A stretch of 64,000 nt of DNA from a virus. The position numbers and the translations under genes were made by a program. The notes beneath the pieces were generated by a model that saw nothing but the letters and a program-made list of their open reading frames with translations, did no database searches and was not told where the DNA came from. Below are positions 35,686 to 54,941 of the stretch, piece by piece (the stretch's first letter is position 1; each line of letters begins with the position of its first letter). Where the stretch lies: IMG/VR virus record IMGVR_UViG_3300045988_180880, positions 32,001-96,000 of that record. One strand, given 5' to 3'.

Positions 35686-36818
35686 ATGTCAGTATCTCTT
35701 GAGTTACTAACCGATGAAGCTATCATCGATTATACTAAAAGTGATGGAAAAGATCAAGTTCTATTTAATCATAGAGACTTGGACCTGAAGTACAATGGAA
35801 TACAACCTATCGCCGGTGGAGTCTATGATGTCGATATTTTTGGCTCACCCATGGAAGATAGATGTATTTGTGGAAAAATTCGACAACCCTCTGCTGAACC
35901 TTGTCCTCATTGCGGGGCGAGAGTATTTACAAGAGAAGAGGGATTGAGAAGATTTGCTAGAATTGAACTTCCTTTCTATTACTTGAATGATTTACGTTTT
36001 GATATCTTTAAAGAACTTTTCGAAGATATTTTTAAAGATAGTAAAATTGTATTAGATTTCTTTGGAGACGATCTTCGAAGAAATGGTTATAGTGCAAGAG
36101 GAGCGAAGAAATTAGGTATTAAAGTTTTTGATACCTGCCAGTTCGAATATAATCCAACAACAAAAGAACTAAAAATATCAGAATTTATTACTGATGAAGC
36201 TCTATGTTCTTACGAAGGATTAATTAAAATTATTGAAGAACATTTTCCCGCTCGTCTTACAGAATTTAAAAAATTAATTAATCGGTATTACCTAGTACAA
36301 CCTGCTATGATGAGACCTTTTACTCTCGGAATTAAAAACGGGAAAAAAGTAATGGGATCTCATAAACTTAGTATTTGGTACTCTATTATTATCAGACTTT
36401 GTTGCGTAGAAGATAAAAAATCTAATGACTTGAACTATGAGGAAGTTACATCTAAATTTAATACCCCTGGAGAAAGAGTTAGATATACAGCCCTTCTACG
36501 TGCTCTCCTAAATGCTGGAAAAAAAGAAGCTACAGCACTACTTAATACATCTAAAGAAAATCTAGCACGTGACTTGTATTCTGTCCGTACTAAAAATTCT
36601 GCTAGATGCCCAATTATACCTAGTACTACATTAGCTATCGATGAAATCTCTGTTCCAATACATATCGCTTATGAAATGTGTCGGGAAGGTTTCTTAGATT
36701 ACTTAATGAAAGAGCTGAATTTTACCAAAAACGAAGCACTCAAAGCAACAAAAGAAGAATATAATAATCCGGAAACTCTGAAAATGTTTAAAGAGTATGC
36801 GGAAAAACAAATCGTACT
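35686..36818 (+). CDS. rpoC: RNAP beta'-like subunit, exon 1
   Basis: zinc-ribbon CICGK..CPHCG near N-terminus; ends ..AEKQIVL(ct-); the ORF-track tail MVS* is intron. Confidence 0.8.
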
Positions 36819-36976
36819 AATGGTTTCCTAATTGGTACGTTAGGTGTGAATCCTAGAATATATAATGTGAATTATGTATTAAATTTTGTGTATTGCTGGG
36901 AGGATCTAAATATCTAATCAGCAGTTGAAGATAATTTATTTATACGAATTTATAATAATTAAAATACTAGAATATT

Positions 36977-37582
36977 ATGAAGGTACTTAGAATTAAACAC
37001 TTCTCTTCTCTAGTATCTACACAACCAATTTTTAATAGATCTGAACATATGAAGCAACTACATGCTCAAGGAAGATATCAAGGTACTTCTAAAATTGGTA
37101 TATGGAATTCTAGTGAAGAGAAGAGACAAAGAATGGCATTACTTGGAGCTAAAAATGCTTTAGATAAAAATTCTAAAGGTTATGGATCTGAGTATGCAAT
37201 GAGAGTAAATAATAGAATATTACTTGGAAATAAATTTCAAGGAGAAACTGGTTATTTATATTTTGTAAGATATCCGAAATCAATAAAAATTGGATTTTCA
37301 AAGAATTGGGAACGTAGAATTAATACCCAATTGATGAATCAATTTCAAATACTTGGTGGAAAAGTTGTAGCAATTATATCAGGACCTACCAATGAACTAG
37401 CTGATCTCGAGTTTGATACTTTTATTAAATTTCAAAAATATACTAAACTGTCTAAAGACGAAACAAGGTATACTGAATTTTTAGATGATAAAATTAGAAA
37501 AGACGTATATAACTTTTTGGATGATAAAGTAAAAAATAATAGTAATTTGAAATTTATTATACAAAATAAAATAAACCTTTGA
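36977..37582 (+). CDS. T5orf172/GIY-YIG-superfamily-like putative homing endonuclease (intron ORF 1)
   Basis: GYLYFVRYPKSIKIGFSKNWERRI core. Confidence 0.5.
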   Translation: MKVLRIKHFSSLVSTQPIFNRSEHMKQLHAQGRYQGTSKIGIWNSSEEKRQRMALLGAKNALDKNSKGYGSEYAMRVNNRILLGNKFQGETGYLYFVRYPKSIKIGFSKNWERRINTQLMNQFQILGGKVVAIISGPTNELADLEFDTFIKFQKYTKLSKDETRYTEFLDDKIRKDVYNFLDDKVKNNSNLKFIIQNKINL

Positions 37583-38364
37583 AATTTATGACACAAGAAG
37601 AAATTAAATACCATAATCAACTATGGTATTATAAAACATATAATCAACTTATAGATAAATGTATACAATTGGAGTCTGATGGTTATCCAGAAGATATGTA
37701 TACAGAGGTTCACCATATATTACCTAAATGTATGGGTGGAACAAATAAGGAAGATAATTTAGTAAGAATGCCTGTTAGATATCATATAATGGCTCATTTA
37801 TTACTTGTAAAAATATATCCAAATATAGGAAAAATAATATATGCAGCTAATATAATGATTGTCGGAAATAAAAATACAAGAGCTGAACGAAATCTAGCTT
37901 TAAATCAATTCTCTACAAAAACTATTAGTCAATTAAGGGAAACTATGGCAAATTATCAGAAAGGAAAACCTTTATCAGAAGAACATAAGCAGAAAATTTC
38001 TTTTGCATTAAAAGGAAAAGTACATTCTGAGGATCATAATAGAAAAGTTTCTGAATCTAAAAAAGGAAAACATTTATCAAAAGAAACGAAAGATAAGTTA
38101 AAGTTGTCCCATTTAGGTAAAAGTCTTTCTGAAAGTCATAAAAAAGCTATTGGAAACGCTCTTCGTGGAAGAAAAGGAAAACCTCTCTCTGAGGAAGTAA
38201 GAGAGAAAATTTCTAAAAATAATAAAATGTCAAAAGCTGTTCAGGATTATAATGGTGTAATTTATAATAGTATCTCTGATTGTTCTAGAAAATTAAATAT
38301 TCCAGATAGTACTATTAGTTATTGGATCAAAAAACATCCTGAAAAAGGTTTTAAATTCGTATAA
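37579..38364 (+). CDS. HNH homing endonuclease with NUMOD3-like repeats (intron ORF 2)
   Basis: EVHHILPKCMGGTN..N HNH motif; repeated S-E-E-H-K-x-K-I-S-x-x-x-K-G-K units; close paralog of 45778..46629. Confidence 0.75.
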   Translation: MKFMTQEEIKYHNQLWYYKTYNQLIDKCIQLESDGYPEDMYTEVHHILPKCMGGTNKEDNLVRMPVRYHIMAHLLLVKIYPNIGKIIYAANIMIVGNKNTRAERNLALNQFSTKTISQLRETMANYQKGKPLSEEHKQKISFALKGKVHSEDHNRKVSESKKGKHLSKETKDKLKLSHLGKSLSESHKKAIGNALRGRKGKPLSEEVREKISKNNKMSKAVQDYNGVIYNSISDCSRKLNIPDSTISYWIKKHPEKGFKFV

Positions 38365-38511
38365 ATAAATTAATCACAATTCAACGACTATGGACAAAAC
38401 CAGGCTAGTGTTGTGATAACCTAGTTTTAACCATGGAAAATATAGTCTTTGCAAGATAGAATTATATCTTGGGTAATCAATATAAGTTGGCTAAAGTATT
38501 GATTATCACAG

Positions 38512-39163
38512 AGTTAATCGCCAACCCTCTTTGCACGAGTACAGTATGTTTAGCATGAAGCTCAAGCTTAATGATTCATATGCAATTGAATTTCCCATCG
38601 CTGTTTGTGAGCCTTTAAATGCTGACTTCGATGGCGATACGTGCTCCATACAACTCGTCCCTCCAGAGGCAGCAGAAGAAACATATCTTAGGATGTCGCC
38701 AAGATATGTGAATGTTTATAAGAAAAATAATGAACCTATATTTAAATTTAACCACGAAACTTTGAATGGTCTTGCAGTTGCATCAGAATACGTATTTGAT
38801 GATCAGGATGAATTAGAAAATCCTAGACACTTTTATACGGATTATGTGCAACTTCTTAAAGATGTTGAAGTAGAGAAAAAAATTAAAGTAGGTACTCCAA
38901 TTACATTCACTGGAAAAATTGGAAATGTTGAATATACCGCTAAAACAACAAGTTATGGTAGACTTCGAATTTCTAAGATTCTAGACGCAGATATGGATGA
39001 AATTGGGATTTTATCTAATAAATATGAACGTATCAGTGCTAAAGCTGCTTCGAAATTATCTTTATATCTTAATCAATTTCCTGATGGAGTTGAGAAAAGA
39101 AAAGCATTACAGAAGCTTGCCCTCAGAATTGTTACATTAGCAGGAGTAGTTACGTTTGACTAT
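38512..39163 (+). CDS. rpoC: RNAP beta'-like subunit, exon 2 (catalytic NADFDGD)
   Basis: junction gives IVL|VNRQPSLH; NADFDGDT at ~38620-38643; ends ..VVTFDY. Confidence 0.8.
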
Positions 39164-39350
39164 AAAATTGTAGCTTAAGAAATAAATTATCTTGAGAAAA
39201 TTCTATTAAAATGCTAGAACTATTAGAATAAAGTAGAATTAGCATCTCTATCTCTTAGATAAAATAGAGTTCAACGACTAAATATAGAACTGTATGAAGT
39301 TATATACAGATGATATAGTCTATCTAAATTAAGAAGATTTAGAATTAATG
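39164..39350 (+). ncRNA. group I intron, family A (187 nt)
   Basis: P1 ctaU / Gtag (short); P aatgctagaac, Q aattagcatc, R gttcaacgactaaa, S gatgatatagtct; ends attaatG. Confidence 0.7.
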
Positions 39351-39464
39351 AAAACGTTATATGCTGATTGTGATACTGAGACGTATAAAAGAATATGTAA
39401 TGTTGCAGATTCAAAAGATCTTACTGATAAACAAAAACTTCTTATAATGACTGAAGAATTTCGT
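39351..39464 (+). CDS. rpoC: RNAP beta'-like subunit, exon 3 (114 nt)
   Basis: KTLYADCDTETYKRICNVADSKDLTDKQKLLIMTEEFR; in frame with exons 2 and 4. Confidence 0.7.
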
Positions 39465-39637
39465 TAATTATTTTTAGCGACTTAATAATTTTAATTATTA
39501 AGAAAAATAAGAGAATTGCTAGAACTATATATAAAATACTGAACTAGCATCAAGTAGTATTAACTATTTGTTCAACGACTATGTACTTATTATAAAATGA
39601 TATAGTCTACCTTTATTGATTGAATAAAGAGTTAGTG
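39465..39637 (+). ncRNA. group I intron, family A (173 nt)
   Basis: P1 tcgU|t / aGcga; P/Q/R/S present; ends agttagtG. Confidence 0.7.
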
Positions 39638-39742
39638 AAATATGAAAAAGAAGTTTCTGAAAGTTTTAGTACAGATCTTAAAAATGAATTAGCACGTGCA
39701 AATCGTGTAAAACTAAACTCGATTGTAGCAATGTCAATGCCT
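39638..39742 (+). CDS. rpoC: RNAP beta'-like subunit, exon 4 (105 nt)
   Basis: KYEKEVSESFSTDLKNELARANRVKLNSIVAMSMP. Confidence 0.7.
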
Positions 39743-39923
39743 AAAGAAAAAATTGGGCAATATAATGAAAATTAACTCATTATATTAAAATTATGTTAAT
39801 TGCTGGAACTGTAAGAATTATAGAATTAGCATCAAGTAAAAGCTTAAATTATTTGTTCAACGACTATATACATAATATTAAAGATATAGTCTAAACTTAT
39901 ATAAAGTAATATAAGTATCATTG
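39743..39923 (+). ncRNA. group I intron, family A (181 nt)
   Basis: P1 tgccU|aa / ttGggca; P/Q/R/S present; ends atcattG. Confidence 0.75.
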
Positions 39924-40042
39924 CAATTTATTGTTAGTGGAGTTGATGAAAAACCTGTTATTACACGAGGAACACTTTTGTCAGGATATACAGAAAAAGA
40001 CTATCAGCTTCATTCAATCGAGAATAGATCACTACAGTCAAT
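39924..40042 (+). CDS. rpoC: RNAP beta'-like subunit, exon 5 (119 nt)
   Basis: QFIVSGVDEKPVITRGTLLSGYTEKDYQLHSIENRSLQS(at-); DYQLHSIENRSL aligns with E. coli QYFISTHGARKGL. Confidence 0.7.
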
Positions 40043-41332
40043 TTTAGTTTACCTTTAGTTGACTATAAATTCTACTAAATGCTGGAATTCTGTGAAGAGA
40101 ATCAGCAGTTAATACAAAACTAAGTCATAAAGTTGTGAAATTATTATGGCAGGGAAATTGGAAAAATTTATATTAACAGATAAAGAAGAAATAGATTCTT
40201 TTAATAAATTAATTAGTTTAAATCCGCAACCTGGAAAATCTTTTGATAATTATTTAAAAGTTATCAATCGCGGTCATTATAAAATATGTTTATATAAATG
40301 GTTTACTGGATTAGATGAAGATATTTATGTAACTCAATCTCATTTATATAAACATTTGAATGATAATAGCAAATTTGTTAAAATAACACCTCAAATTTAT
40401 TATGATGTTATAGTATTAGGTTTGACTAATATTAATGATCGTCCTAAATGTGAAATATGTGGAAAAATATCTAGATGGGATGGATTTAAAAGAGGTTATT
40501 TAAAAACATGTTCAGAAAAGTGTTCTGAACTATTAAGAGATAGTAGAATGTCTGAACAAGGATTAAAAAATTTTCACAAATTACAGACAAAAGAGTCTAG
40601 AGAAAAGCAGAGGGAATCACATAAAGGATGGAGTCCTTCAGAAAAACAAAGAAAACAAATTTCTCAACGAATGAAAGATTTCTATAAGACACCAAAAGGA
40701 TTAGAAATGAGAAAGAATTCTAGTAGGTTATTATCTGAAAGAAATATTGAAATGATGAAAGATAAGTCTTATTATAACAAACGAACAGGAGGTAAATATA
40801 AAACAGGTATATATCATTCTAAAGTTTGGAATAAAGATTTTAATTATGATTCATCTTGGGAAATTAATTTTATAAAATTTTTTGAAAAGCAGAAATGGCA
40901 AAGTGAGATAAAAATATTTGATAGGTGTTTAGATTCTATTATTTATAAATGGGATGATGGAACTGAACATAGATATCTACCTGATTTTTACATCAAATTT
41001 AAATCAGGTCTTCAAGTTGTTATTGAGTTAAAACCAGCAAATCTAATAGAAAAAGATCCGGTGATTTTAGCCAAAAGAATAGCAGCGAAGAAATACTTTG
41101 CAAAAAGAAATATAAAATATATTATATTATCTGAAAATGAACTATTCACAACTAGATATATAAAGTATACTAAATTATCTGAAAGTTTAGGAATAGTTAA
41201 TTCATTTAATATTTATGATTACATAGTTTAATTAAGATTTAGTTTTGTATTAATTCAACGACTATATGTAGAAACTTATGTGAATAAGAAAGGTATAGTC
41301 TAAGTCTTTATGAATAAATAAAGATATCACTG
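40043..41332 (+). mobile_element. group I intron, family A, with endonuclease ORF
   Basis: P1 agtcaaU|t / aGttgact; P aaatgctggaattc, Q gaatcagcagt, R attcaacgactat, S aaggtatagtct; ends tatcactG. Confidence 0.75.
40146..41231 (+). CDS. putative homing endonuclease (NUMOD3-like repeats + PD-(D/E)XK-like C-domain)
   Basis: SEKQRKQISQRMK repeats; YLPDFYIKFKSGLQVVIELKP resembles a PD..(E/D)xK nuclease core. Confidence 0.5.
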   Translation: MAGKLEKFILTDKEEIDSFNKLISLNPQPGKSFDNYLKVINRGHYKICLYKWFTGLDEDIYVTQSHLYKHLNDNSKFVKITPQIYYDVIVLGLTNINDRPKCEICGKISRWDGFKRGYLKTCSEKCSELLRDSRMSEQGLKNFHKLQTKESREKQRESHKGWSPSEKQRKQISQRMKDFYKTPKGLEMRKNSSRLLSERNIEMMKDKSYYNKRTGGKYKTGIYHSKVWNKDFNYDSSWEINFIKFFEKQKWQSEIKIFDRCLDSIIYKWDDGTEHRYLPDFYIKFKSGLQVVIELKPANLIEKDPVILAKRIAAKKYFAKRNIKYIILSENELFTTRYIKYTKLSESLGIVNSFNIYDYIV

Positions 41333-41347
41333 AAAAGTTAGTGGAGT
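41333..41347 (+). CDS. rpoC: RNAP beta'-like subunit, exon 6 (15-nt micro-exon)
   Basis: aaaagttagtggagt; supplies (I)KVSG(V). Downstream P1 agtgg(a)gU|t / aGcccact is homologous to the intron-5 P1. Restores E. coli-like spacing before SGYLTR. Confidence 0.55.
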
Positions 41348-41816
41348 TAGAAATAAAACCTGAACTTTATGGTAGCCCACTATAAATAACAAAGAAATGC
41401 TGGAAATAATAATAGACAGACGAAGTCAAAGTTTTTTAAAATCAGCAACTTATCAACGAGAAAAAGATGAATTATTAGTACTTTTTAAAACTTAATGTGT
41501 AGATTTGAAAAATTCTTAGAAACTCTAAGGCTTGTTGGAAGTATAGCAAGAACTATACTCTCTGGAATTGAAGAATATAGAAAAATTCAAGAAACAAAAG
41601 CTTATCGAGAGAATAAGAAAAATAATGTAAAATATCTACCAAGACCAAAAAGGTATAATAGTAGAAGAAAACAAAGATAAGATCAACGACTATGTATTGT
41701 TAGATTAAGGAAACTCTTTAATCATGATATAGTCTAATCTTACGTGAATAAGCGTAAGCAGGATAAGAGATTAGAAGACGTCTTTTAAAAATTATAATAT
41801 CTAATCTCTTTGAATG
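41348..41816 (+). mobile_element. group I intron, family A, with 61-aa basic ORF remnant
   Basis: P aaatgctggaaat, Q aaatcagcaac, R gatcaacgactat, S atgatatagtct, P9 cttacg../..cgtaag, extra 9-bp hairpin agagattag/ctaatctct; ends ttgaatG. Confidence 0.6.
41495..41680 (+). CDS. small basic intron ORF (61 aa), function unknown
   Basis: ORF track; sits in the loop position used by endonuclease ORFs in sibling introns. Confidence 0.35.
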   Translation: MCRFEKFLETLRLVGSIARTILSGIEEYRKIQETKAYRENKKNNVKYLPRPKRYNSRRKQR

Positions 41817-42106
41817 GCCTAGTTCAGGATATTTAACACGACAAATTTCATTCCTTTTAAATAGTTTTATATATCATGAAGGAGAAGATCCAGAAAACAC
41901 AGGATTACTCATTCCACGATATAAAGCATTAGGAAGAACAGCACCGAACGGAAAGGTATACCCAGACAAACCAATAGTAAATGGTTCTGAGGATGATCTT
42001 GTTCCAGTACGTTCGATTGTTACAAAAAGAACTGGAGATTTAAGCACAATTACACCAGACCTGATTGGAAAGAAATTTAGTTTTACTGATGGAGCAGCAA
42101 TAGGAT
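41817..42106 (+). CDS. rpoC: RNAP beta'-like subunit, exon 7
   Basis: (V)PSSGYLTRQISFLLN...VRSIVT...GAAIG(t--); SGYLTR is a universal beta' block. Confidence 0.7.
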
Positions 42107-42344
42107 AAGTTTAGAATTGTCCATAAAAGTTTGTTATAGACTTTTATTAAACTTCAAGAATTGCTGGGAGTATTATCGCTATTTATTCTTCGCCTTGTAA
42201 AATAAAAAACTTAAGGCGAAAATTATATAGCGAGAGATAATCAGCAAAAGATATAGAAAATATATCTTCTTAACGACTATGTGTGAAGGAGAGATTAAAA
42301 CACTCTTAAGATATAGTCTAGTAATCTATATAAAGTTTGTATAG
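42107..42344 (+). ncRNA. group I intron, family A (238 nt)
   Basis: P1 ggaU|aa / ttGtcc; P aattgctgggag, Q taatcagcaaa, R cttaacgactat, S aagatatagtct; ends gtatagG. Confidence 0.7.
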
Positions 42345-42392
42345 GTTTAATCGTATCATTTGCTACATCATTAACTGAAGGTACTACTCAAT
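42345..42392 (+). CDS. rpoC: RNAP beta'-like subunit, exon 8 (48 nt)
   Basis: (C)[15 protein letters not shown](t--), equivalent of the trigger-loop block IAAQSIGEPGTQLT. Confidence 0.7.
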
Positions 42393-42573
42393 TAAAATTG
42401 GTTGCTATATAAAATAGTATTATATAGAAAATCTTTGTAAAATGCTGGAAATTAAAAAAAAATAATCAGCATCAAGGAATATATTAATAACTTGTTCAAC
42501 GACTATAAAAAAAGATCTTATTAATTTAAGAATGGTATAGTCTAAATTCATTCTAAAAGGATGAATAATCTTG
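42393..42573 (+). ncRNA. group I intron, family A (181 nt)
   Basis: P1 caaU|t / gGttg; P/Q/R/S present; ends aatcttG. Confidence 0.65.
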
Positions 42574-42602
42574 CAGCATTAGGTCTGAAACATGGTGGCC
42601 AT
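42574..42602 (+). CDS. rpoC: RNAP beta'-like subunit, exon 9 (29 nt)
   Basis: (S)ALGLKHGGH, equivalent of E. coli MRTFHIGG. Confidence 0.7.
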
Positions 42603-42762
42603 AGATTATATTTGTGGCGTATAATTTCAATAATTGCTGGAAATATTTGTAATAAAATAAATCAGCAGGGGAAAATAAAATCCCTTCAACGACTATAAAT
42701 GAAACTAGATGAATTTCTGGATGATATAGTCTAACTTATAAATTATATTATAAGAGTAATTG
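42603..42762 (+). ncRNA. group I intron, family A (160 nt)
   Basis: P1 gccaU|a / tGtggc; P aattgctggaaat, Q aaatcagcagg, R cttcaacgactat, S gatgatatagtct; ends agtaattG. Confidence 0.75.
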
Positions 42763-43002
42763 GAACGTGTGCTTAATACAGAAGGAAATCTTAAAGCACC
42801 AAAACAATGTGAGTTTAGAGAGGAAGGCAGATGGATTTACCTAAAAGTTAGAGGAGGAGAATTAAAATATCCGAGACCTAATAATTGGGTAGGAGTAGGT
42901 AAGACAAAATTTGAGAAAGGTGACTTAATAGGGTCAGCTTATAATACTACCTCGCCTATTTACAAGTTGAACGCTCTCATAAAACTTATGCGTGCCAAAG
43001 GT
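42763..43002 (+). CDS. rpoC: RNAP beta'-like subunit, exon 10
   Basis: ERVLNTEGNLKAP...LIKLMRAKG; the ORF-track tail EYKIAV* is intron. Confidence 0.7.
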
Positions 43003-43195
43003 GAATATAAAATTGCCGTCTAAGGAAGTAATTCTCTAGATAATTAGTAAGTAAATTTGGTGAAGCTAGTAACTAGTAATACCAAGCCTTGGATTAATAA
43101 TTAGAATCTTAAGGTATAACGAATAAAGACTTACCAACTTTTTTATAAGTTGAATTTATATTCTAAACTATAATAAGAAAATTATAGATAAATTG
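43003..43195 (+). ncRNA. group I intron, family B copy 1 (193 nt)
   Basis: P1 ggU|ga / ttGcc; P3 agtaagt/acttacc, P4 tttggt/accaag, P7 gaata/tattc; ends ataaattG. Confidence 0.75.
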
Positions 43196-43804
43196 AGTGA
43201 TGGCACAAGATATTTTGAGAAGGATAATGTTATTGTATCTGATTGTTATGCTTTGAATGATGGGGTTATTCATTACAAAGAGACCAAGGAAGGTGATACT
43301 GAAGTTTGGATTGGTGATACTCAGTATGACTATAATCCAGAGTGTATGTATTATTTTCCTGATGGTACAGAGATTAAGAAATTTCAAAGAATTTCCAGCG
43401 GAGTTTGCAATATGAATCATGTTATTGCAGAGTTGGGTTCTAATATTAATGATATTTACTTAATCTTTAGAAAACAATTTTATACTTTAACAGATGGAGG
43501 ATTTGTATCAACTGGTTTATCAGATCTTCATGCTACACAGGAAGAACTTATTGAACTTTTATTCACAGGTTTAACTGATGTAGGTGTAGATCCAGAAACA
43601 CAGAAGATTGAAGACATCCAATATCTAGGTACTCAAAGTGGTGTTTTAAATAAGAAGTCATTCTATACTGTTTTGTCTTACGGTTATAGCTCTAGAGTTG
43701 TGTCTAAAGCTCTCAAAGGGGAATTAAATCTTTCTGGTGACGTAATGACAGAAACTATATTAGGATTACTTTTAAATAATAAACTTGACGAAAAACAAAA
43801 GTAA
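43196..43804 (+). CDS. rpoC: RNAP beta'-like subunit, exon 11 (C-terminus)
   Basis: SDGTRYFEKDN...; total spliced frame 3351 nt + stop. Confidence 0.75.
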   Translation, partial: SDGTRYFEKDNVIVSDCYALNDGVIHYKETKEGDTEVWIGDTQYDYNPECMYYFPDGTEIKKFQRISSGVCNMNHVIAELGSNINDIYLIFRKQFYTLTDGGFVSTGLSDLHATQEELIELLFTGLTDVGVDPETQKIEDIQYLGTQSGVLNKKSFYTVLSYGYSSRVVSKALKGELNLSGDVMTETILGLLLNNKLDEKQK

Positions 43805-43813
43805 AAACAAATT

Positions 43814-44092
43814 ATGGGAACTATTAAATTTGAAATAGATCTTCCAGAATTTGAAAAAGAGTTGAGTATTAATGTAACTATTCATAGAGACGGTGAGGTG
43901 GTTTATACTACTACTACCTCATCTTCCTCTGTGGATAAATCTAATAATACTAATCTTTTATCGAGCCTTGGAAGTAAACCCGAGCAAGAAAAATGTATCT
44001 CTGTGGATGGAGATAAACAAAAAGAAGAAAAACCCAAGAAAGCATCAACTACATCTCGAAGGGGAGGAAATTTGATGAACTTGGATATATGA
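43814..44092 (+). CDS. hypothetical protein between beta' and beta genes
   Basis: ORF track; S/T/K-rich C-half. Confidence 0.45.
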   Translation: MGTIKFEIDLPEFEKELSINVTIHRDGEVVYTTTTSSSSVDKSNNTNLLSSLGSKPEQEKCISVDGDKQKEEKPKKASTTSRRGGNLMNLDI

Positions 44093-44123
44093 TGATTAAA
44101 ACCAGAGAAGAGAATTTTTTGTT

Positions 44124-44474
44124 ATGAACGATAATTATTATAAAATTATACTATCATATGAAATTCCATATAACATTTTAGACAGTCAAGATCCGAATAT
44201 TATACAGGCGAGAGAAATATTATATGAAAAACTTAGAGATGATATTTTTCCGAAGTATGAAAGATTTTCGGTAAAGCTTACATTACATCAACTTAAAGAT
44301 AACTTCAATTATCTTGTTACTTATGAAGCTTTTTTTAGATCTCTTGATGGTAAACCTATGGGAGAATATGTAGAGGCTCGTAGCTTAAAAGATAGTATTA
44401 AATCAGAATTAGAAACATTTTTTAATTCAGTAGATTGCGAATATAAGCAATTAAATATAAAACCATTAGTATAA
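44124..44474 (+). CDS. hypothetical protein between beta' and beta genes
   Basis: ORF track; stop overlaps the beta start (TAATG). Confidence 0.5.
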   Translation: MNDNYYKIILSYEIPYNILDSQDPNIIQAREILYEKLRDDIFPKYERFSVKLTLHQLKDNFNYLVTYEAFFRSLDGKPMGEYVEARSLKDSIKSELETFFNSVDCEYKQLNIKPLV

Positions 44475-45336
44475 TGAGTAATTTTAATCAATATTTCAGA
44501 AACACTGGAGCAAAAATTATAGTAGATCGATTTTTTAATAAAGTTGATGCATATAATCCTAAAGTAAAAGTTGGAAAAATTGGATATTCATTTATAGAAG
44601 AACCTCCTCAACCAGCTTCTTACTATATTGAAAATGGATTAACTGCTACACATAAAGTAAGAATTGAATATACAACTATAACGGATGGGAAAGAAGATCC
44701 TGAAATGAAGTATGCAGAGTTCGAAGTTCCTAAAGAAATTGATGGTGCATTTATTATAGAAGGCGCTTATCGTATTTCAACTAATCGAATGGGATCTGAT
44801 TATGACTGTCGTATTAAAATGTCTGGTACAGGAGATTATAAAGTTAATTTCGACTATGATAGAGTTTACGATATTCAAAAACAGATTCTGAAGATAAAAA
44901 GAATTAATCCGGAACTTGGAATTGCAGATAAACCAATTGATATAAAGTTTGAAGACATTGATAAATACTTGGAAACTGATAAAAAGGAGATCTTGAAGTT
45001 AACTGAAAGACAAACCAAGAAATTAATGATCAAACTTGACTTGGATTATAAACCTGAATATATTACACAAAAACTAATACAGGAATGTTTGGCCTTTGGA
45101 GATGATAGACTAAAAGACTTAATCATTGATAAAACATTAGAATCAGTTCCTAACAGTTTTATGCAATATATTTTTAGGAATAATAATGGACGTAACTATT
45201 TTGCAGCTAGACGAAGAATTACATCATATTTTACAAAGTATGGTAAAATTCAAGATCAAGTTACTGCAATTAGTACTTTGTGTTTTAGATTTTTTAAAGG
45301 AAGTAGCGATAACAAAGGAGATTCAGGAGTACAGGT
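44474..45336 (+). CDS. rpoB: RNAP beta-like subunit, exon 1
   Basis: ends ..GDSGVQ(gt-); the ORF-track tail is intron. Confidence 0.75.
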
Positions 45337-45544
45337 ACAAAATATAAAGGTGCCGTTTTATGGAGAAATCTATAAAATTATTAGTAAGTAAATTCGGTGA
45401 AGGGTAAAACCTAATACCGAACTAAGGATAATGAAAATTTTTAGTGTAACGAATAAAGACTTACTAACTTATAATTAAAATATAAGTTAAATTTATATTC
45501 TGTTCTATATAAGTAGAACTTTATTTATATAGTTAACAATAAAG
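45337..45544 (+). ncRNA. group I intron, family B copy 2 (208 nt)
   Basis: P1 ggU|ac / gtGcc; P3 agtaagt/acttact, P4 ttcggt/accgaa, P7 gaata/tattc; ends caataaaG. Confidence 0.75.
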
Positions 45545-45635
45545 CCCCCCTGGAGTAAATTCCATTAACTTAGAGGCAATCTCCCAAAAAATTGTTATTC
45601 CTGCGAGTGTAGCCTTTAATTCGACTTTTACAGAT
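45545..45635 (+). CDS. rpoB: RNAP beta-like subunit, exon 2 (91 nt)
   Basis: (V)PPGVNSINLEAISQKIVIPASVAFNSTFTD. Confidence 0.7.
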
Positions 45636-46763
45636 TTAGATTAAGTCTGATTATAGAATATTTTTTATAATAAAAACTTTGAGAATTGCTAGAAAACTAG
45701 TGATAGTTAATTAGCAGTATAAAATAAGTATAATTATTTATGCGTTGAGAGGAAAAATTTTTGAAAGGAATTTAAGAATGACGCATGTAAAAGAAATTAA
45801 ATACCACAATCAATTATGGTATTATAAAACGTACAATCAGTTAATAGATAAGTGTATACAGATGGAGTCTGAAGGTTATCCTGAAGATATGTATACAGAG
45901 GTTCACCACATACTACCTAAATGTATGGGTGGGACAAATGATGAGTCTAACTTAGTAAGAATGCCAGTTAGGTATCATATAATGGCACATTTATTGTTAG
46001 CACAAGTATATCCAGAAATAAATGGATTAGTTTATGCAGCACATGTTCTAGTCTCAGTGAATAATTCAGTTGTATCTACGAATACAGCTGCATTAATTAG
46101 AGAAGATTTTAAAAAGTCTAGAATAGGATCTCATCATTCAGAAGAGACAAGGAGAAAAATTTCTGAATCTAACAAAGGAAAAGTTATCCCTAGAGAACTA
46201 GTAGAGAAGTTAAGATCTATTAATTTAGGGAAGAAACATTCACTTGAAACGAGAAAGAAGATGTCAGAAGCTAGAAAAAGAGAGAATTTATCCGAGGAAA
46301 CACTAAGAAAAAGATCTCTAGCGTCCTCTGGAAGAAAACATTCTGAAGAAGTCAAGAAGAAGATTTCTATAGCTAATACTGGAAAAATTTTTAGCGAAGA
46401 ACACAGACAAAACATATCTAAAAGTAAGATGGGAAAAGGACATCCACATACTGAAAAAACAAAGAAAATGATGTCTGATACTAGCGTTAAGAGAAAAAGA
46501 GTTCAAGGCCCTGATGGAATAATTTACGAATCTATGAAACTTTGTTGTGAGAAATTTAATATTCATAGAGATACCCTTCGAAGCTGGATTAAAAATCACC
46601 CAGAAAAAGGCTTTAAATTTATTGATTAAAAAATTTATCATTACTATAAATTCCTTTCAATGTAATGAAATTTAATACTTATTTTATATTCAACGACTAT
46701 GTACAAAGAGGGAAATTCCTTAAGATATAGTCTAGTGATAAAGTAAAAAACTTTATCTATTCG
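45636..46763 (+). mobile_element. group I intron, family A, with HNH endonuclease ORF
   Basis: P1 cagaU|tta / taaGtctg; P aattgctagaaa, Q aattagcagt, R attcaacgactat, S aagatatagtct; ends ctattcG. Confidence 0.8.
45778..46629 (+). CDS. HNH homing endonuclease with NUMOD3-like repeats
   Basis: start moved to ATG 45778 (the track starts at an upstream TTG); first ~80 aa are near-identical to 37579..38364. Confidence 0.75.
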   Translation: MTHVKEIKYHNQLWYYKTYNQLIDKCIQMESEGYPEDMYTEVHHILPKCMGGTNDESNLVRMPVRYHIMAHLLLAQVYPEINGLVYAAHVLVSVNNSVVSTNTAALIREDFKKSRIGSHHSEETRRKISESNKGKVIPRELVEKLRSINLGKKHSLETRKKMSEARKRENLSEETLRKRSLASSGRKHSEEVKKKISIANTGKIFSEEHRQNISKSKMGKGHPHTEKTKKMMSDTSVKRKRVQGPDGIIYESMKLCCEKFNIHRDTLRSWIKNHPEKGFKFID

Positions 46764-47132
46764 TTAGTCGATATTGCCGACACTCCTATAAATAATAATA
46801 CTAACCTCCAGAACTCACTTACAGTTTCATGTCATATTACAGACGATGATGTACTATTTGATGTATATGATACAAATTTCGTAAAAATAACAATAAAATA
46901 TATAGACTATCTTAATAAAAAAGTAGCTGCCAGTGAGTATGTAGATTATGAAACTAACACTTTAAAGCCAGATAAAGATGGTCAAGTGGAGGTTAAGTAT
47001 AGGATGAAAAGAAAGATGGTTCCAGTCGAAGAAGTGGAATTGATCGATTTACATCCTGATTACAGATTGTCTAGCACAACTCGAAGAATCCCATTTGTGA
47101 ATTATACAGATAGTGTCAGAATAAGCATGGGT
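46764..47132 (+). CDS. rpoB: RNAP beta-like subunit, exon 3
   Basis: LVDIADTPINNNTNLQNSL (E. coli CPIETPEGPNIGLINSL) ... RRIPFVNYTDSVRISMG. Confidence 0.8.
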
Positions 47133-47326
47133 ACTAATTTATGTGCCGCTTAAAGTAGTAATATTTTAAGTAACCAGTAAGTAAATTCGGTGAAAGAGTG
47201 ACTGAGCTTTAATACCGAGCTAAAGATAATAGATTTCTTTAGTGTAACGAATAAAGACTTACTAACCAAAATAAAGGTTAAATTTATATTCTAAACTATA
47301 ATTAAAAGTATATTATAGAAGATTTG
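47133..47326 (+). ncRNA. group I intron, family B copy 3 (194 nt)
   Basis: P1 ggU|ac / gtGcc; core as in other B copies; ends aagatttG. Confidence 0.8.
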
Positions 47327-48266
47327 ACATCAATGCTTAAACAGAGTATACCTCTGATTAATGCGGAGCGTGCACTTGTTGACACTGGAAGGAATGAAGA
47401 GTTGAAAGATAATATATTAAATGAAAAGTTCAGTTATCCAGAGGGTAAGGTAAAGGATATAACAGAGGATGAAGTTATAATTGAATTGCCTGATGGAACT
47501 GAGACAAATATTTTACGAAGAACAGCGATTCAGAGTATAAATGACGTGGCGGTATTTACAGAGCCTAAAGTAAAAATCGGCCAAAAAGTAAAACAGGGAG
47601 ATATTATAACTGGTGCAGTTGGACATACTCCTGAAACATATAAGGCCGGCGTTAATGCTCTGGTACTTTTCCACGCCTATTATGGTTTAGTAAATGAGGA
47701 TGCTTTGGTGATATCAGAATCATTTGCAAATCGTATAGCATCTTATAGTATAATTGACTTAATGATTAATGTTAAGAGTACTAGTGCTATTAAGTGGATC
47801 GCCCCTATTGGAACAAAGGTTAAATCAAAAGATGCAGTAGTGACATTATATAAAGCTGTTCGTCTTGATGCTATAAATCAGGCACTACAAGAAAAACTCG
47901 GAGGACTTTTCGGAGAAGGACATGATCTCTCCGAATATACTATCGAGGATCATTTAGTTGTGCCTAATAATATAGACGAGGCAATAGTTTCTGATGTAAT
48001 GATACAGGAAATGAAGAAACCTAAAATTCCTAAATCAGTAAAATCACCTGACTATTCATTTACACATACCTCTCAGGATGTTATAGATGAATATGAAAAA
48101 ACAAAATCTCGAAAAATTATCTACGAGAAATACCCAGAGTATATTGCAGCTGATACATTAGATCCTATTAATATGGATCCAGAAGCGTATAAGATTGTGT
48201 ATACTGTTCGCGTGAGACTCATCAAAAGAACTGTGGGAATGATCGGAAGTAAAATTACCTCTAGAT
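47327..48266 (+). CDS. rpoB: RNAP beta-like subunit, exon 4
   Basis: junction SMG|TSMLKQSIPL aligns residue-for-residue with E. coli LMGANMQRQAVPT; ends ..GSKITSR(t--). Confidence 0.8.
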
Positions 48267-49666
48267 TTAATATAAGTCTAGTTAATTTTCAATAAAAGTT
48301 AACTAAATTTTGTGAATTGCTGGAAAAATCTAAATAAAATAGATGGATAGATAAATCAGCAGTATATTTATGTTTAATTATGAGTAAAATATGAGCGATA
48401 TTAATTTTTAATAATAAATTGAACAATGAGCGAAGAAGAAATATTAATACATAATCAAAATTGGTATCGCAAAGTATATTTCCAAATAATTGATCGCGCT
48501 AGATTAAGAGGTTTGGATAAAAATAAAATTGATTTTTATGTAGAAATTCATCATATACTACCTAAATGCCTAGGAGGAACTGATGAAAATGATAACTTAG
48601 TTGCATTAACTTATAGAGAACATATAGTTTGTCATAAATTATTGTGTAAATTATACCCAGATAATTACTACTTACATTCTTCTATATATTTAATGCTACA
48701 TATTAAAATAGAAAATGGGAAGAAGGTAAAAACATTTTCTAATTCTAAAGAGGCAGAAGAATATAAGCTTTTCTTGAAAACTCATAAAAAGCCTCTTTCT
48801 GAGGAATCTAGAAAAAAGATGTCAGAATCGCATAAAGGTTGGAGTCCATCTGAGGAACATAGAAGAAGAGTTTCAGAAGTACATACTGGAAAAATCGTTT
48901 CAAAAGAAACCAGAGAAAAATTAAGAAAGGTTAATCTGGGAAGACATCATACAGAAGAATCCAAAAGAAAGATATCAGAGTCACGTAGAGGAAAGAAATT
49001 ATCTTCAGAACAAAAAGAAAAAATTTCAAAATCACTAAAAGGAAAAAGATTAGGAATCTCTCCAACTAAGGAACAAGTAGAAAAAGCAAAACAAACTCGG
49101 ATACTCCATGGAGGGTGGGTACATACAGATGAAAGTAAAAGAAAAATTTCAGAATCTTTAAAGAAGACGAATTCTGTCTCTGAACATATATCAGAAGATA
49201 TAAGAAATTCTTTAAGGAAAAAGTTTGGGTTCGCTGTAAGATATACTGATATTAATACTGGTGAAATTTACGAATTTGATTCAATTACAAAAGCTGTTAG
49301 TGAACTTAAAGAGTTAAGTATTATGAATAAAAGCTTTCATTTTATAAAGCGTTCTTGTACATTAAATATTAATGGATTTGAATTTATCAATGAAACAAAT
49401 GAAATGATTCAAAAGAAAGTTCAGGGGCCTGATGGAATTATTTACAATAGTATATCTGAATGTGCTAGACAATTGAATACAGTTAGATCTGTAATTATTG
49501 ATTGGATTACTAATCATCCAGAAAAAGGATTTAAATACATTTAAAAAATCAATCGCTCATTGATATAAAAATAATTAAATAAAATATATTCAACGACTAT
49601 GTACAAAGAAGGAGTATTTCCTTAAGATATAGTCTAGACTTTACTTAATTAAGTAAAGTATTATCG
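48267..49666 (+). mobile_element. group I intron, family A, with HNH endonuclease ORF
   Basis: P1 ctagaU / Gtctag; P aattgctggaaaa, Q aaatcagcagt, R attcaacgactat, S aagatatagtct; ends tattatcG. Confidence 0.8.
48426..49544 (+). CDS. HNH homing endonuclease with NUMOD3-like repeats
   Basis: EIHHILPKCLGGTDENDN; many SEExRxKxSExxKG repeats; C-terminal WITNHPEKGFKYI as in the two paralogs. Confidence 0.75.
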   Translation: MSEEEILIHNQNWYRKVYFQIIDRARLRGLDKNKIDFYVEIHHILPKCLGGTDENDNLVALTYREHIVCHKLLCKLYPDNYYLHSSIYLMLHIKIENGKKVKTFSNSKEAEEYKLFLKTHKKPLSEESRKKMSESHKGWSPSEEHRRRVSEVHTGKIVSKETREKLRKVNLGRHHTEESKRKISESRRGKKLSSEQKEKISKSLKGKRLGISPTKEQVEKAKQTRILHGGWVHTDESKRKISESLKKTNSVSEHISEDIRNSLRKKFGFAVRYTDINTGEIYEFDSITKAVSELKELSIMNKSFHFIKRSCTLNINGFEFINETNEMIQKKVQGPDGIIYNSISECARQLNTVRSVIIDWITNHPEKGFKYI

Positions 49667-49680
49667 ATGGAGGCAAAGGT
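49667..49680 (+). CDS. rpoB: RNAP beta-like subunit, exon 5 (14-nt micro-exon)
   Basis: atggaggcaaaggt gives (Y)GGKG; the join ITSR-YGGKG-VVSAVKPDDMMP matches E. coli GRHGNKGVISKINPIEDMP. Confidence 0.75.
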
Positions 49681-49871
49681 CAAATTACAAGGCCGTTTAA
49701 GGTAGTAATATCTTAAATAATCAGTAAGTAAATTTGGTGAAGGAAGTAAAATTCTAATACCAAGCTAATAAAATATAATAATTTATTAGTATAACGAATA
49801 AAGACTTACTAGGTTGAAATAATACCTAAATTTATATTCTAATTTACTAGGATAATCTAGTAATAGTAATG
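49681..49871 (+). ncRNA. group I intron, family B copy 4 (191 nt)
   Basis: P1 ggU|c / gGcc; P3 agtaagt/acttact, P4 tttggt/accaag, P7 gaata/tattc; ends agtaatG. Confidence 0.75.
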
Positions 49872-50645
49872 GTTGTAAGTGCTGTGAAACCCGACGATAT
49901 GATGCCAATAATGGTAGATAAGGATGGGAAACAAAGACGTTGCGAAGTAGTGATGAATCCATACAGCACAATAAATCGTAAAATTCCGAGTGTCCTTATG
50001 GAATTACAACTCGGAAATATCGCTCACAAATTACACGATCTTGTAGATAATTATAAGAAAACAAAAACAGGGCAAAAGAAGATTAAGCCCCTTCTTGAAA
50101 CATATTACCCCGGACGTTTTACTAGTATGGATGTAGAAGAAATTATAGAACGTCATAATACTAGTAAAATCGAGGATATGTATTATTTCAATGTTGGCTG
50201 CTTCTCTACTAAATTTACTCCAGAACTTGTAAATCAATGGGCTGAAGATTTAGGTGTAGAAAGTCAGAGTAAAATTCTTATGCCTGAGACTGAATTAACA
50301 GATCTCGATGAATTAAAAGAAAATCTAGAACCAGAAGAATATGATAAATTAGTTTCTGGAATGTCTGGTAAGTTTAGAGAAGTAGATAAACCTTTGCAGG
50401 CGGGATTCATGACCCTTGAAGAGTTATACCATATACCATCATATAGTAATAAGGTTACATCAAGTCTATATGGCGTAGATATTAATGCTAAACGAGATGA
50501 ACCTATACTTGGAAAGGGACGCTATAGACAGACAGGACAGAAAATTGGTGAGATGGAATTGGCCGTATTACTTTCTAGAAATGCGGATCAATTTATCAGC
50601 GGTGCTAGAAAAGACACTGCGAAGGAAGATAATCAAATGTTCCTT
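49872..50645 (+). CDS. rpoB: RNAP beta-like subunit, exon 6
   Basis: VVSAVKPDDMMP..VVMNPYS...GQKIGEMELAVLL (E. coli GGQRFGEMEVWALE)...NQMFL. Confidence 0.8.
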
Positions 50646-50833
50646 AAATTATTGAGGCTAGTATCAATACAAACTGATACTAGAAAATATCTTAAATTGC
50701 TGGAACAAAGTAGAAAATCAGCATCAAGCTGTTGTTTTATAATTAACAGCTTGTTCAACGACTATAGTAGATACTAAAGAATACTTATTTTAGATAATAT
50801 AGTCTTACTTTAAATAAAATTAAAGATGAATAG
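50646..50833 (+). ncRNA. group I intron, family A (188 nt)
   Basis: P1 cctU|a / tGagg; P aaattgctggaac, Q aaatcagcatc, R gttcaacgactat, S gataatatagtct; ends atgaataG. Confidence 0.7.
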
Positions 50834-50862
50834 AATAACTTATTAGGTCTAGGATTAACCGT
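50834..50862 (+). CDS. rpoB: RNAP beta-like subunit, exon 7 (29 nt)
   Basis: NNLLGLGLT(gt-), equivalent of E. coli NVLLKEIRSLGI. Confidence 0.65.
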
Positions 50863-51067
50863 AAACTATTTGCGGTTTTAAATTATATTAAAATGCTAGA
50901 ATATTTATAATAAATATATTAGCAAAATATCTTACCTTAGATTATATCTAAGAAAAAGATATTCTCAACGACTAAATATATAACTAAGTTTGAAATATAA
51001 TTTAGATGATATAGTCTGAACATAGATTAATAATAATCTAGTAACGTAATTGAGTAGATGATAAAGG
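50863..51067 (+). ncRNA. group I intron, family A (205 nt)
   Basis: P1 aaccgU / Gcggtt; P aaaatgctagaat, Q atattagcaaa, R ctcaacgactaaa, S gatgatatagtct. 3' end placed at the only G (51067) that keeps the frame open. Confidence 0.6.
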
Positions 51068-51875: not shown

Positions 51876-52883
51876 ATGTCAAAAAAGTCAAAATGGTCAG
51901 AGTATAGTAGTATTGAAAAAGTTCAAGAATTCATAAATTCCAATAATATTAGCAGTAAAATAGATTTTAAAAATAAATATCAATCTTTATATACTAGAGC
52001 TAGACTAAATAATTGGTTAGATAATTTAAAATTTAAGATAATAAAAAGAAATGATCTATCTAAATTTGATAATATAGATTCAATAAGAGTATTTATAAAT
52101 AATAATATAAAAAGTAGAACAGAGTTTAAGAAAAAATATAATGGATTATATTGGAAATCTGTAAGAAGTGGTTGGATACATGATATAAAATTTGAAAAAG
52201 ATATGAAAGATTGGAGTTACTATGATAGTATAGTTAAGGTTCAAAATTTTATCTATTCAAATAATATTTTAAATCATGATCAATTTTCAAAAGAATATCC
52301 AGGATTATTAAGTAAATGTGATAGAAATAGATGGAGTATTTACTTAAATTATATAAATGGTAAGATTAATAACTGGAATAATATTAATTCTATTATAGAT
52401 GCACAAAATTTTATAAATATTAATAATATAAATAATAGAGAATTATTTACAAAAAACTTTAGTGGTTTATCTGATAAATGTTATAGAAATAATTGGATGA
52501 AGGATTTAATTTTCAAAGAAGATGGAATTAAATCTTGTTGGGAAATTAATCTTAAGATATTTCTAAAAAAGAATAATTATACTATAGAATCTGAAATAGT
52601 ATCATATTCAAATTATTCTAAGATTGATATTTTTATACCAGATCTAAACATAGCTATTGAAATTCAGGGTCCATACCATTTCCCAGTAATGGGAAAATTA
52701 GAGCAATATCTATTTCAAAGAAAATCTGATATAAAGAAAAATAGATGGTGTAGAGAGCAAGGAATTACTTTGTTATACTTTAGCTATGATAAACTATTAG
52801 TAGAAAAATATGGATATCCCTGGTATATTTACACATCAGAGAAAGAATTGTTGGCAGAAATAGAACGAATCAAATCCTTATAA
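51876..52883 (+). CDS. free-standing nuclease: four ~55-aa tandem repeats + Vsr/DUF559-like PD-(D/E)XK C-domain
   Basis: repeat unit W-x-x-(Y/F)-(S/D/N)-(S/N)-I-x-x-(V/A)-(Q/R)-x-F-I-N-x-N-N-I ... W four times; C-terminal KIDIFIPDLNIAIEIQGPYHF. Confidence 0.5.
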   Translation: MSKKSKWSEYSSIEKVQEFINSNNISSKIDFKNKYQSLYTRARLNNWLDNLKFKIIKRNDLSKFDNIDSIRVFINNNIKSRTEFKKKYNGLYWKSVRSGWIHDIKFEKDMKDWSYYDSIVKVQNFIYSNNILNHDQFSKEYPGLLSKCDRNRWSIYLNYINGKINNWNNINSIIDAQNFININNINNRELFTKNFSGLSDKCYRNNWMKDLIFKEDGIKSCWEINLKIFLKKNNYTIESEIVSYSNYSKIDIFIPDLNIAIEIQGPYHFPVMGKLEQYLFQRKSDIKKNRWCREQGITLLYFSYDKLLVEKYGYPWYIYTSEKELLAEIERIKSL

Positions 52884-54867: not shown

Positions 54868-54941
54868 TGGGCCCAGCCAGGCTTGAACTGACGACCTTCT
54901 GATTATGAGTCAGCTTCTCTAACCAACTGAGATATGGGCCC
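54868..54941 (-). tRNA. tRNA with CAU anticodon (Met, or Ile if lysidine-modified)
   Basis: minus strand gggcccatatctcagttggttagagaagctgactCATaatcagaaggtcgtcagttcaagcctggctgggccca; 7-bp acceptor, GTTCAAG T-loop. Confidence 0.85.

Follow-up and report, generated by a model that had tools for sequence, protein, structure and literature searches.

The stretch of DNA analysed here, hereafter the window, comprises 64,000 nucleotides (nt) of the IMG/VR virus record IMGVR_UViG_3300045988_180880 (positions 32,001 to 96,000 of that record) and contains, at positions 36819..38511 on its plus strand, a group I intron of 1693 nt (intron 1) that interrupts the gene for the beta' subunit of a multisubunit RNA polymerase and carries two open reading frames (ORFs) resembling nucleases of different families. 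The guanine plus cytosine (GC) content of the window is 26-36%, and fragments of the RNA polymerase genes are found on the plus strand over ~35.7-50.8 kb. The host genome of intron 1 is a jumbo phage of roughly 375 kb with 29% GC, for which the GenBank phage collection yielded no match either by DNA (megablast) or by the protein encoded in exon 1 (tblastn). We collected relatives from IMG/VR, namely 25 close and 6 more distant loci on contigs of 230-400 kb, which are designated below by L numbers where they need to be told apart. The window phage fits the 'Jug' (jumbo gut) phages of Bacteroides/Phocaeicola in the size and GC content of its genome, in its load of introns and in the endonucleases it encodes, and is probably one of them. 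These phages have genomes of 360-402 kb with ~30% GC and ~18.5 group I introns each (PMC12880540 / bioRxiv 2025.08.10.669567), and they carry many HNH, PDDEXK_5 and GIY-YIG endonuclease genes (PMC12880540).

Exon 1 of the beta' gene (35686..36818, plus strand) ends in ...CAAATCGTACT at 36818, and exon 2 (38512..39165, plus strand, the end being approximate) starts at 38512 with A GTT AAT CGC CAA CCC, which encodes the motif VNRQPSLH, followed by NADFDGD. The predicted ligated exons thus read ...EKQIVL-VNRQPSLHEYS.... Two related phages, L044 and L046, have uninterrupted beta' alleles that read through this point (...NQVVLANRQPSLHEYS... and ...TQVVLVNRQPTLHEYS...) and match the predicted junction exactly, which confirms the junction and shows that the intron is present in some relatives and absent from others. 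The hallmarks of group I splice sites are found at both ends: the last base of exon 1, U36818, forms a U.G pair with G36834 in the helix P1, and G38511 is the last base of the intron. These splice sites, after U36818 and at the terminal G38511, coincide with the limits proposed in an initial annotation that had been made from the sequence of the window alone. The exon reading frame ends at a TAA at 36829-31 within the loop of P1.

The flanks of the two ORFs supply a single, complete group I ribozyme core on the plus strand. P1 (36813..36839) pairs CGTACU/AA (36813-20, the slash marking the splice site) with UUGGUACG (36832-39) and is followed by P2 (36840-44/36852-56), P2.1 (36858-66/36871-79), the 5' strand of P3 (36884-89), P4 (36894-99/36918-23, pairing UGCUGG with UCAGCA), P5 (36902-05/36912-15) and the 5' strand of P6 (36924-29). 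The 3' part of the core (38380..38511) comprises P6' (38380-85), P7 (38386-92/38441-47), P3' (38394-99), P8 (38402-08/38421-27), P9 (38452-58/38465-71) and P9.1 (38476-82/38497-503), and ends in G38511. P3 (UUUUGU/ACAAAA) and P7 (GACUAUG/UAUAGUC) form the pseudoknot. The P and Q elements AUUGCUGG and AAUCAGCAG, in which P4 lies, and the R and S elements UUCAACGACUAUG and AAAAUAUAGUC of P7 match the classical P/Q/R/S consensus. We compared the intron flanks across the 25 loci and counted covariation on 11 ORF-deleted variants, the structure tested being that derived from the window's own sequence; in one alignment (A2) MAFFT misplaced P1 of L021 and L023, and those cells were counted as gaps. 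In the 11-variant alignment 87.9% of the cells were paired, as against 35-45% with slid partners, and 25 pairs were changed on both sides, values that none of 500 shuffles reached. P1 shows a compensatory change in L024 (GUGAU/GUCAC, with both strands altered), and P2.1 is fully compensated, having been rebuilt in four sequence variants. RNAalifold independently gives P1, P2, P4, P6 and P7, and the minimum free energy fold of the ORF-deleted intron (309 nt; -88 kcal/mol, z = -6.4) reproduces all the nested helices. On the covariation, the folding z-score and the presence and absence of the element among relatives, we regard 36819..38511 as a real group I intron of the beta' gene, which is predicted to be spliced.

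Split beta' genes do exist in other jumbo phages, and one might accordingly read the locus as encoding beta' in two polypeptides, with two free-standing endonuclease genes in between. The lack of an Rfam match and the practice of the Jug phage study, which counts most such endonuclease genes as stand-alone (PMC12880540), would be compatible with this. Against it stands the covarying group I core formed by the flanks, which has the U.G pair at its 5' splice site and a terminal G. Further, there is no ATG, GTG or TTG from the upstream in-frame stop to the invariant VNRQPSLH, so that a separate second gene would lose this motif, and in the uninterrupted alleles the two exon sequences meet precisely where the junction is predicted. 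In three Jug genomes, moreover, 76 introns were predicted, and metatranscriptome reads support splicing for 37 of them (PMC12880540). We find the intron-free interpretation scarcely credible.

Both ORFs lie within one loop of intron 1. Directly after P6, the plus-strand segment 36932..36946 (UAAUUUAUUUAUACG) pairs with 38358..38372 (CGUAUAAAUAAAUUA) to form a 15-bp stem, P6a, whose 3' strand shares sequence with the final codon and the stop codon (38362-64) of the second ORF and is followed by P6' and the R element. P6a thereby brackets both ORFs and closes a loop (L6) of 1.4 kb; in other alleles of this cassette its sequence differs and its complementarity is kept. Since P6a encloses the two ORFs, both reside in L6 of one intron, and the initial annotation was right to describe one intron with ORFs of two different nuclease families. 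The conceivable arrangement of a twintron, or of two adjacent introns with an endonuclease gene each, has precedents in the twintrons of fungal mitochondria (PMC4964425) and in a second intron that lies 24 to ~230 nt from intron 1 in other loci (L012, L009, L017); we give it almost no credence here, as 36819..38511 holds a single set of P, Q, R and S elements and no second, nested ribozyme core, and P6a joins sequence upstream of the first ORF to the stop codon of the second. With only 5 nt between the ORFs an inner core would also have no room.

The first of these ORFs, ORF A (36977..37582, plus strand, 201 amino acids), is found at the position given in the initial annotation and is the resident gene of intron 1: it occurs in 29 of 29 intron-bearing loci, whose exon-1 identities to the window range from 100% down to 61%, and is missing from both intron-less loci (L044, L046). 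A large database contains 291 proteins of its family, which is narrow, as it collapses to 28 clusters at 50% identity; the best 120 of the 291 members share 58-99% identity with ORF A and have lengths of ~176-250 amino acids, most of them 190-205. An alignment of 25 family members has 58 invariant columns. Searches with ORF A recovered a weak match to phrog_18411, which is annotated as a homing endonuclease (E = 9e-4), and in BFVD its predicted fold matched T5orf172, MUG113, GIY-YIG, Hef-like and CapR-homology proteins (E 1e-4 to 1e-2), those to T5orf172, MUG113 and GIY-YIG having probabilities of ~1.0 but TM-scores of only 0.3-0.45. A distant relative, P0137, scores above the cut-offs for both T5orf172 (22.6) and MUG113 (23.4) and matches the ORF A profile with 98.4% probability, the segments GYLY, IKIG, RR and LADLE being aligned. 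The ORF A motifs G92-Y-L-Y95, I103-K-I-G106, R113-R114 and E145 are invariant or nearly so and have the counterparts YIYLV, YIKLG, RR and ELE in P0137, and both E145 and E167 are invariant in the family. In T5orf172 proteins, a subfamily of GIY-YIG, a conserved glutamate is reported to be required for cleavage (PMC10448857), and E145 is the candidate for this residue in ORF A. From the fold matches in BFVD, the match to phrog_18411, the bridge through P0137 and the invariant E145 we classify ORF A as divergent but T5orf172-like with moderate confidence, and as a putative nuclease. The T5orf172/GIY-YIG label of the initial annotation is therefore retained in a qualified form, as it is borne out by these comparisons and not by the Pfam cut-off or a fold match in PDB. 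One family member, P0002, is chimeric, its middle being identical to the window allele and both its ends being of the L008 type, which points to recombination inside ORF A.

The second ORF, HNH1, was initially annotated as 37579..38364 (261 amino acids from a TTG) and as overlapping ORF A by 4 nt. The ORF is indeed present at this position and the overlap holds if the TTG at 37579 is the start; most likely, however, translation would begin at the ATG at 37588, which is favoured because it aligns with the starts of HNH2, a paralog in the window discussed below, and of the HNH ortholog in L059. The gene would then span 37588..38364 on the plus strand (258 amino acids), leave a gap of 5 nt after ORF A, and owe the apparent overlap to the choice of the TTG. 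Three parts can be told apart in its product: a probable HNH catalytic module, repeats of the NUMOD3 type, and a helix-turn-helix at the C-terminus. The product matches phrog_655, a family with the annotation homing endonuclease, at 1.5e-39; for NUMOD3 it scores 39.9 bits (cut-off 20.4), and its Pfam matches to the I-TevI DNA-binding domain and HTH_28 are weak. The Pfam HNH score (16.3 bits) is below the cut-off of 21.4, and an alignment to PDB 6ME0 places the motif EVHHILPKCMGGTNKEDNLV...H on the HNH domain of that entry (E = 0.0012).

The two genes differ in their distribution. HNH1 is present in 10 of the 25 close loci, always beside an ORF A allele identical to that of the window, and is intact in 9 of these 10 carriers; its cluster at 90% identity has 228 member sequences. 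In L014 it has a frameshift of 1 nt, and in the HNH gene of L058 an in-frame deletion has removed 34 amino acids between NUMOD3 repeats. L057 retains an HNH remnant in which an internal deletion has left the first ~33 and last ~13 codons. ORF A persists throughout, whereas HNH1 is gained and decays. The L6 cassette itself moves horizontally, given that the same exon 1 is found with different cassettes: between the window and L008, exon 1 has a synonymous divergence (dS) of 0.008 and ORF A one of 1.7, and loci with an exon 1 identical to that of the window but another cassette have an ORF A of 69% protein identity, a different P6a and no HNH gene. Breakpoints of this mosaic lie in P2.1, in P5, in P9 and 15 nt into exon 2, and cassette types and exon-2 alleles occur in all four possible pairings. 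The exon 2 alleles (38512..38530; L002, L005, L009 and others) are identical over the first 15 nt after the splice site and then diverge abruptly and mostly synonymously (CCCTCTTTGCACGAGTACAGT vs CCGAGTCTCCATGAATATTCG, both encoding PSLHEYS); this sharp recombination boundary, close to where the intron is inserted, may mark the limit either of co-conversion or of an endonuclease target.

The pairing of ORF A with an HNH gene is old. L059 has an intact HNH ortholog at the same position, and comparison with the window gave, with the ratio of nonsynonymous to synonymous substitution written dN/dS, a dS of 1.03 and dN/dS of 0.046 for exon 1 (92.6% protein identity), a dS of 0.83 and dN/dS of 0.16 for ORF A (80% identity) and a dS of 1.06 and dN/dS of 0.24 for the HNH gene (65% identity), the similar dS values indicating that the three genes co-diverged. 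Both ORF A (dN/dS range 0.14-0.20) and HNH1 are under purifying selection. The frameshift in L014, the deletion in L058, the remnant in L057 and the absence of HNH1 from most cassette alleles could also be taken to mean that HNH1 is inert and is being lost as a mere passenger, with ORF A alone of consequence, but it is hard to reconcile an inert gene with 9 intact copies in 10 carriers and a 90% cluster of 228 members, with an intact ortholog kept after a dS of ~1 at a dN/dS of 0.24, or with the dN/dS of 0.10 of its catalytic module relative to HNH2. We therefore consider the passenger interpretation improbable.

Taken together, these observations are probably best explained by a mobile group I intron in which ORF A is the resident endonuclease and HNH1 a second endonuclease that arrived later in L6. 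Under this model, ribosomes arriving from exon 1 would halt 11 nt into the intron, in the loop of P1, and because of this early stop the core would be free to fold. P6a would clamp the two halves of the core across the 1.4-kb L6, and splicing initiated by guanosine would join U36818 to A38512, restoring ...QIVL-VNRQPSLH... a short way upstream of the catalytic motif NADFDGD. ORF A and HNH1 would be translated from unspliced or excised intron RNA, probably in a coupled manner because only 5 nt separate them; as the stop codon of HNH1 lies inside P6a, translation of the ORFs and folding of the ribozyme would be mutually exclusive. In co-infections ORF A would cut intron-less beta' alleles of the L044/L046 type and so drive homing. 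The distribution of HNH1 indicates that it entered the occupied loop in one cassette lineage and was thereafter inherited with ORF A, and it might in turn spread the whole L6 cassette into introns that lack an HNH gene or into nearby exon sequence, with the conserved core and the exon sequences serving as homology arms. By analogy with the PhiPA3 protein gp210, ORF A or HNH1 could also act as a weapon against co-infecting relatives.

Several points weigh against this model. A gene for an endonuclease that is never missing from its intron might be kept for some other function. ORF A reaches only 15 bits for Pfam T5orf172, under the cut-off of 20, and a Pfam scan recovered T5orf172 at E <= 0.1 in only 3 of 25 family members; a profile search of PDB gave ORF A no GIY-YIG match, and a fold search of the same database with its AlphaFold model, which is of moderate confidence (predicted local distance difference test score 75), returned nothing at E < 0.3. 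The frameshift in L014 could be an assembly error. Finally, the Rfam group I model gave no match here, whether at gathering scores or at E <= 10, a miss that the 1.4-kb insert in L6 is likely to have caused.

Some of these points would be accommodated if ORF A were a domesticated partner of the intron, such as a maturase, a DNA-binding regulator or an anti-competitor, that is not or no longer a homing nuclease, leaving HNH1 as the only mobile component. Such a role would explain the constant presence of ORF A in all intron-bearing loci down to 61% exon-1 identity, and it would sit well with the low dN/dS, with the fact that L021 and L023 still have ORF A although their introns are reduced to forms without P2 and P8, and with the weak Pfam score and missing PDB match; domesticated T5orf172 proteins are reported for the ICP1/PLE system (PMC8096241). 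It is at odds, however, with the invariance of the candidate catalytic residues (GYLY, RR, E145 and E167), with the gain and loss of intron and ORF A as a unit, which is expected of an endonuclease-driven intron, and with the horizontal swapping of ORF A alleles between otherwise identical genomes. A maturase does not appear to be generally needed, since 8 of the 13 introns of the same family in the window are without any ORF. On balance domestication seems unlikely.

We also entertain, tentatively, a layered selfish system in which selection would hold ORF A in the intron for good, as a weapon against competing phages or as a factor in splicing or regulation, and HNH1 would parasitise the occupied intron. 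It is similarly conceivable, if doubtful, that the target of HNH1 is the HNH-less intron or cassette itself rather than the intron-less gene, and we offer with the same reserve the idea that the L6 cassette is swapped between intron copies through recombination at the conserved ribozyme core common to the 13 introns.

The closest known phage systems to intron 1 are the T4 td intron, with the GIY-YIG enzyme I-TevI in its P6 loop, and the introns of SPO1 and SP82, with the HNH enzymes I-HmuI and I-HmuII. Like these, intron 1 is a self-splicing-type intron in an essential phage gene with an early stop in the exon frame and coding sequence looped out of P6, and the combination of HNH and NUMOD3, together with the weak I-TevI-type DNA-binding match of HNH1 and an I-HmuI NUMOD-like match of the paralog HNH3, recalls the T4 and SPO1 systems. 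Unlike them, it holds ORFs of two nuclease families in one loop, and the putative nuclease domain of ORF A is C-terminal, the reverse of the order in I-TevI. In fungal mitochondria two-endonuclease introns use the LAGLIDADG and/or GIY-YIG families, nad1-i4 of Podospora being one such group I intron. Another is cox2-i1 of Hypomyces aurantius, a single group I intron with two homing endonucleases (PMC4964425), so the layout of intron 1 is unusual but not unprecedented; we found no two-endonuclease intron in PMC7487136. In contrast to the organellar fungal introns, intron 1 resides in a phage and pairs a T5orf172-like with an HNH gene in the same loop, 5 nt apart.

Among jumbo phages, gp210 of PhiPA3 is an HNH endonuclease from a group I intron of an RNA polymerase gene, and it reportedly aids competition in co-infection (PMC11620839). 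PhiPA3 belongs to the chimalliviruses of Pseudomonas, a different clade, with one endonuclease per intron, and a role of intron 1 in competition is drawn by analogy. The T5orf172 nucleases of ICP1 (Odn and CapR-related genes) are reported to lie at boundaries of genetic exchange between phages (PMC8263062, PMC10448857). ORF A resembles them in that its BFVD fold matches include CapR-homology and Hef-like proteins, and differs in scoring below the Pfam cut-off and forming its own narrow family. It also lies inside an intron, whereas one ICP1 T5orf172 gene is described as adjoining an intron. The main text of the Jug phage study features terL, nrdD and DNA polymerase rather than RNA polymerase genes, treats endonuclease genes as stand-alone, and describes neither a two-gene loop nor the ORF A family (PMC12880540). 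Likewise, our literature searches recovered no phage intron with T5orf172-like and HNH genes back to back in one loop, no description of the ORF A family and no account of a long-lived pair whose HNH gene cycles through gain and decay. As intron-rich gut jumbo phages with HNH, PD-(D/E)XK and GIY-YIG genes have already been published (PMC12880540), what intron 1 adds is specific rather than broad. It offers a natural series from no intron, through ORF A only and ORF A with an intact HNH gene, to frameshift, repeat deletion and remnant, which suits the study of homing endonuclease genes that invade an occupied intron, of their persistence there and of their decay. It is also relevant to the question of whether something other than homing keeps a 'fixed' endonuclease in its intron. 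Because the intron adjoins the catalytic centre of the RNA polymerase, it is also a candidate for phage-against-phage interference of the PhiPA3 type.

Two further HNH genes lie downstream on the plus strand, each between Q and R in L6 of its own group I intron: HNH2 (45778..46629) in intron 10 (Q 45709, R 46690) and HNH3 (48426..49544) in intron 11 (Q 48354, R 49590). HNH genes thus occupy three separate introns, as initially annotated, and all three share the ending WIxxHPEKGFK(F/Y). The similarity of HNH1 and HNH2 near their starts, which had been noted by eye, amounts to 196 of 228 nt (86%; 37600..37827 vs 45793..46020), and the N-terminal catalytic modules are identical at 68 of 76 residues. 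The proposal that these genes were recently duplicated is not supported by their divergence, for which a dN/dS comparison of the HNH paralogs had been suggested: run on the shared module of HNH1 and HNH2, it gave a dS of 0.72 and a dN/dS of 0.10, and the remainder of the genes has ~45-50% DNA identity. Overall the two proteins are 47% identical, and HNH1 and HNH3 are ~41% identical over the alignable N-terminal region. The same module is seen in the L059 HNH ortholog, and HNH2 is found beyond the window in only one related locus, L022. From these alignments, the likeness of HNH1 and HNH2 is that of a conserved catalytic module set on divergent NUMOD3 DNA-binding arrays, not that of a recent copy.

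Intron 1 is the first of ~13 group I introns of one sequence family, recognised by ordered P/Q/R/S elements, in the beta' and beta genes (36819..51020, plus strand), with R elements at 38380, 39270, 39571, 39856, 41254, 41682, 42269, 42495, 42685, 46689, 49589, 50754 and 50964. Introns 1 to 4 are confirmed by the intron-less beta' genes of L044 and L046. This intron density is exceptional for any gene pair. In other loci (L012, 12038..13266; L009, L017, L024) more introns with HNH or TnsA-like ORFs are found 8 to ~75 codons downstream of intron 1, and the NRQPSLH...NADFDGD region of beta' is an intron insertion hot spot.

Two more ORFs with which the initial annotation dealt lie in L6 of introns 5 and 6, on the plus strand. 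The first (40146..41231; Q 40100, R 41255) had been called PD-(D/E)XK-like, with which its Pfam match to Tn7_TnsA-like_N agrees (37.9 bits vs 26.5, E = 2.7e-9); a PDB sequence search returned no match. Of the three or four nuclease classes initially counted within 13 kb, three are thereby confirmed, namely T5orf172-like, HNH and TnsA-like PD-(D/E)XK. The second, a 61-residue ORF (41495..41680), had been taken for a remnant, which is unproven: it has the same length and 77-100% identity in 21 loci, and shows neither endonuclease homology nor any family match in Pfam or PHROG. Instead of a decayed endonuclease gene, this sequence may represent a conserved small protein or a domain of RNA. A near-identical segment of NUMOD3 type (...ESHKGWSPSE...) is present in the TnsA-like ORF (40560..40640) and in HNH3 (48800..48860), which suggests that DNA-binding modules may be shuffled between endonuclease genes of different nuclease classes.

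Among the smaller elements are short introns of the same family, ~150-200 nt in length, at ~39455..39630 and ~39770..39920, in which the spacing of 13-14 nt from R to S leaves room for P3' but none for the P8 hairpin. Intron 1 of L021 and L023 is similarly without P2, P2.1 and P8. We know of no natural group I introns that lack P8. A second family of intervening sequences, ~170-190 nt long, is represented by four plus-strand copies (43003..43195, ~45338..45540, 47154..47323 and ~49698..49868) with the common sequence AGTAAGTAAATTYGGTGAAGG...TAATACCRAGC...TAACGAATAAAGACTTACTA. The copy at 43003..43195 is precisely missing in the near-identical L002 and L015 and in many other phages, and that at 47154..47323 is missing in L019 to L024. 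Helices that covary by eye are P3 (GTAAGT/ACTTAC) and P4 (TTYGGTG/TACCRAA), and on inspection these elements look like divergent mini group I introns; an initial suspicion that the 'GTAAGTAAATT' elements were not of group I was set aside on account of this likeness. Shortly downstream of the polymerase genes, a plus-strand ORF of 335 amino acids (51876..52883) has matches to PHROG families annotated as homing or HNH endonucleases (1e-7 and 8e-7). It contains repeats, and towards its C-terminus the motif ...DIFIPDLNIAIEIQG... recalls nucleases of the PD-(D/E)XK/Vsr-like kind; the ORF is probably an endonuclease gene that stands by itself, and it possibly represents a fourth class. Further downstream, a tRNA gene lies on the minus strand at 54868..54941 (Rfam, 62.9 bits).

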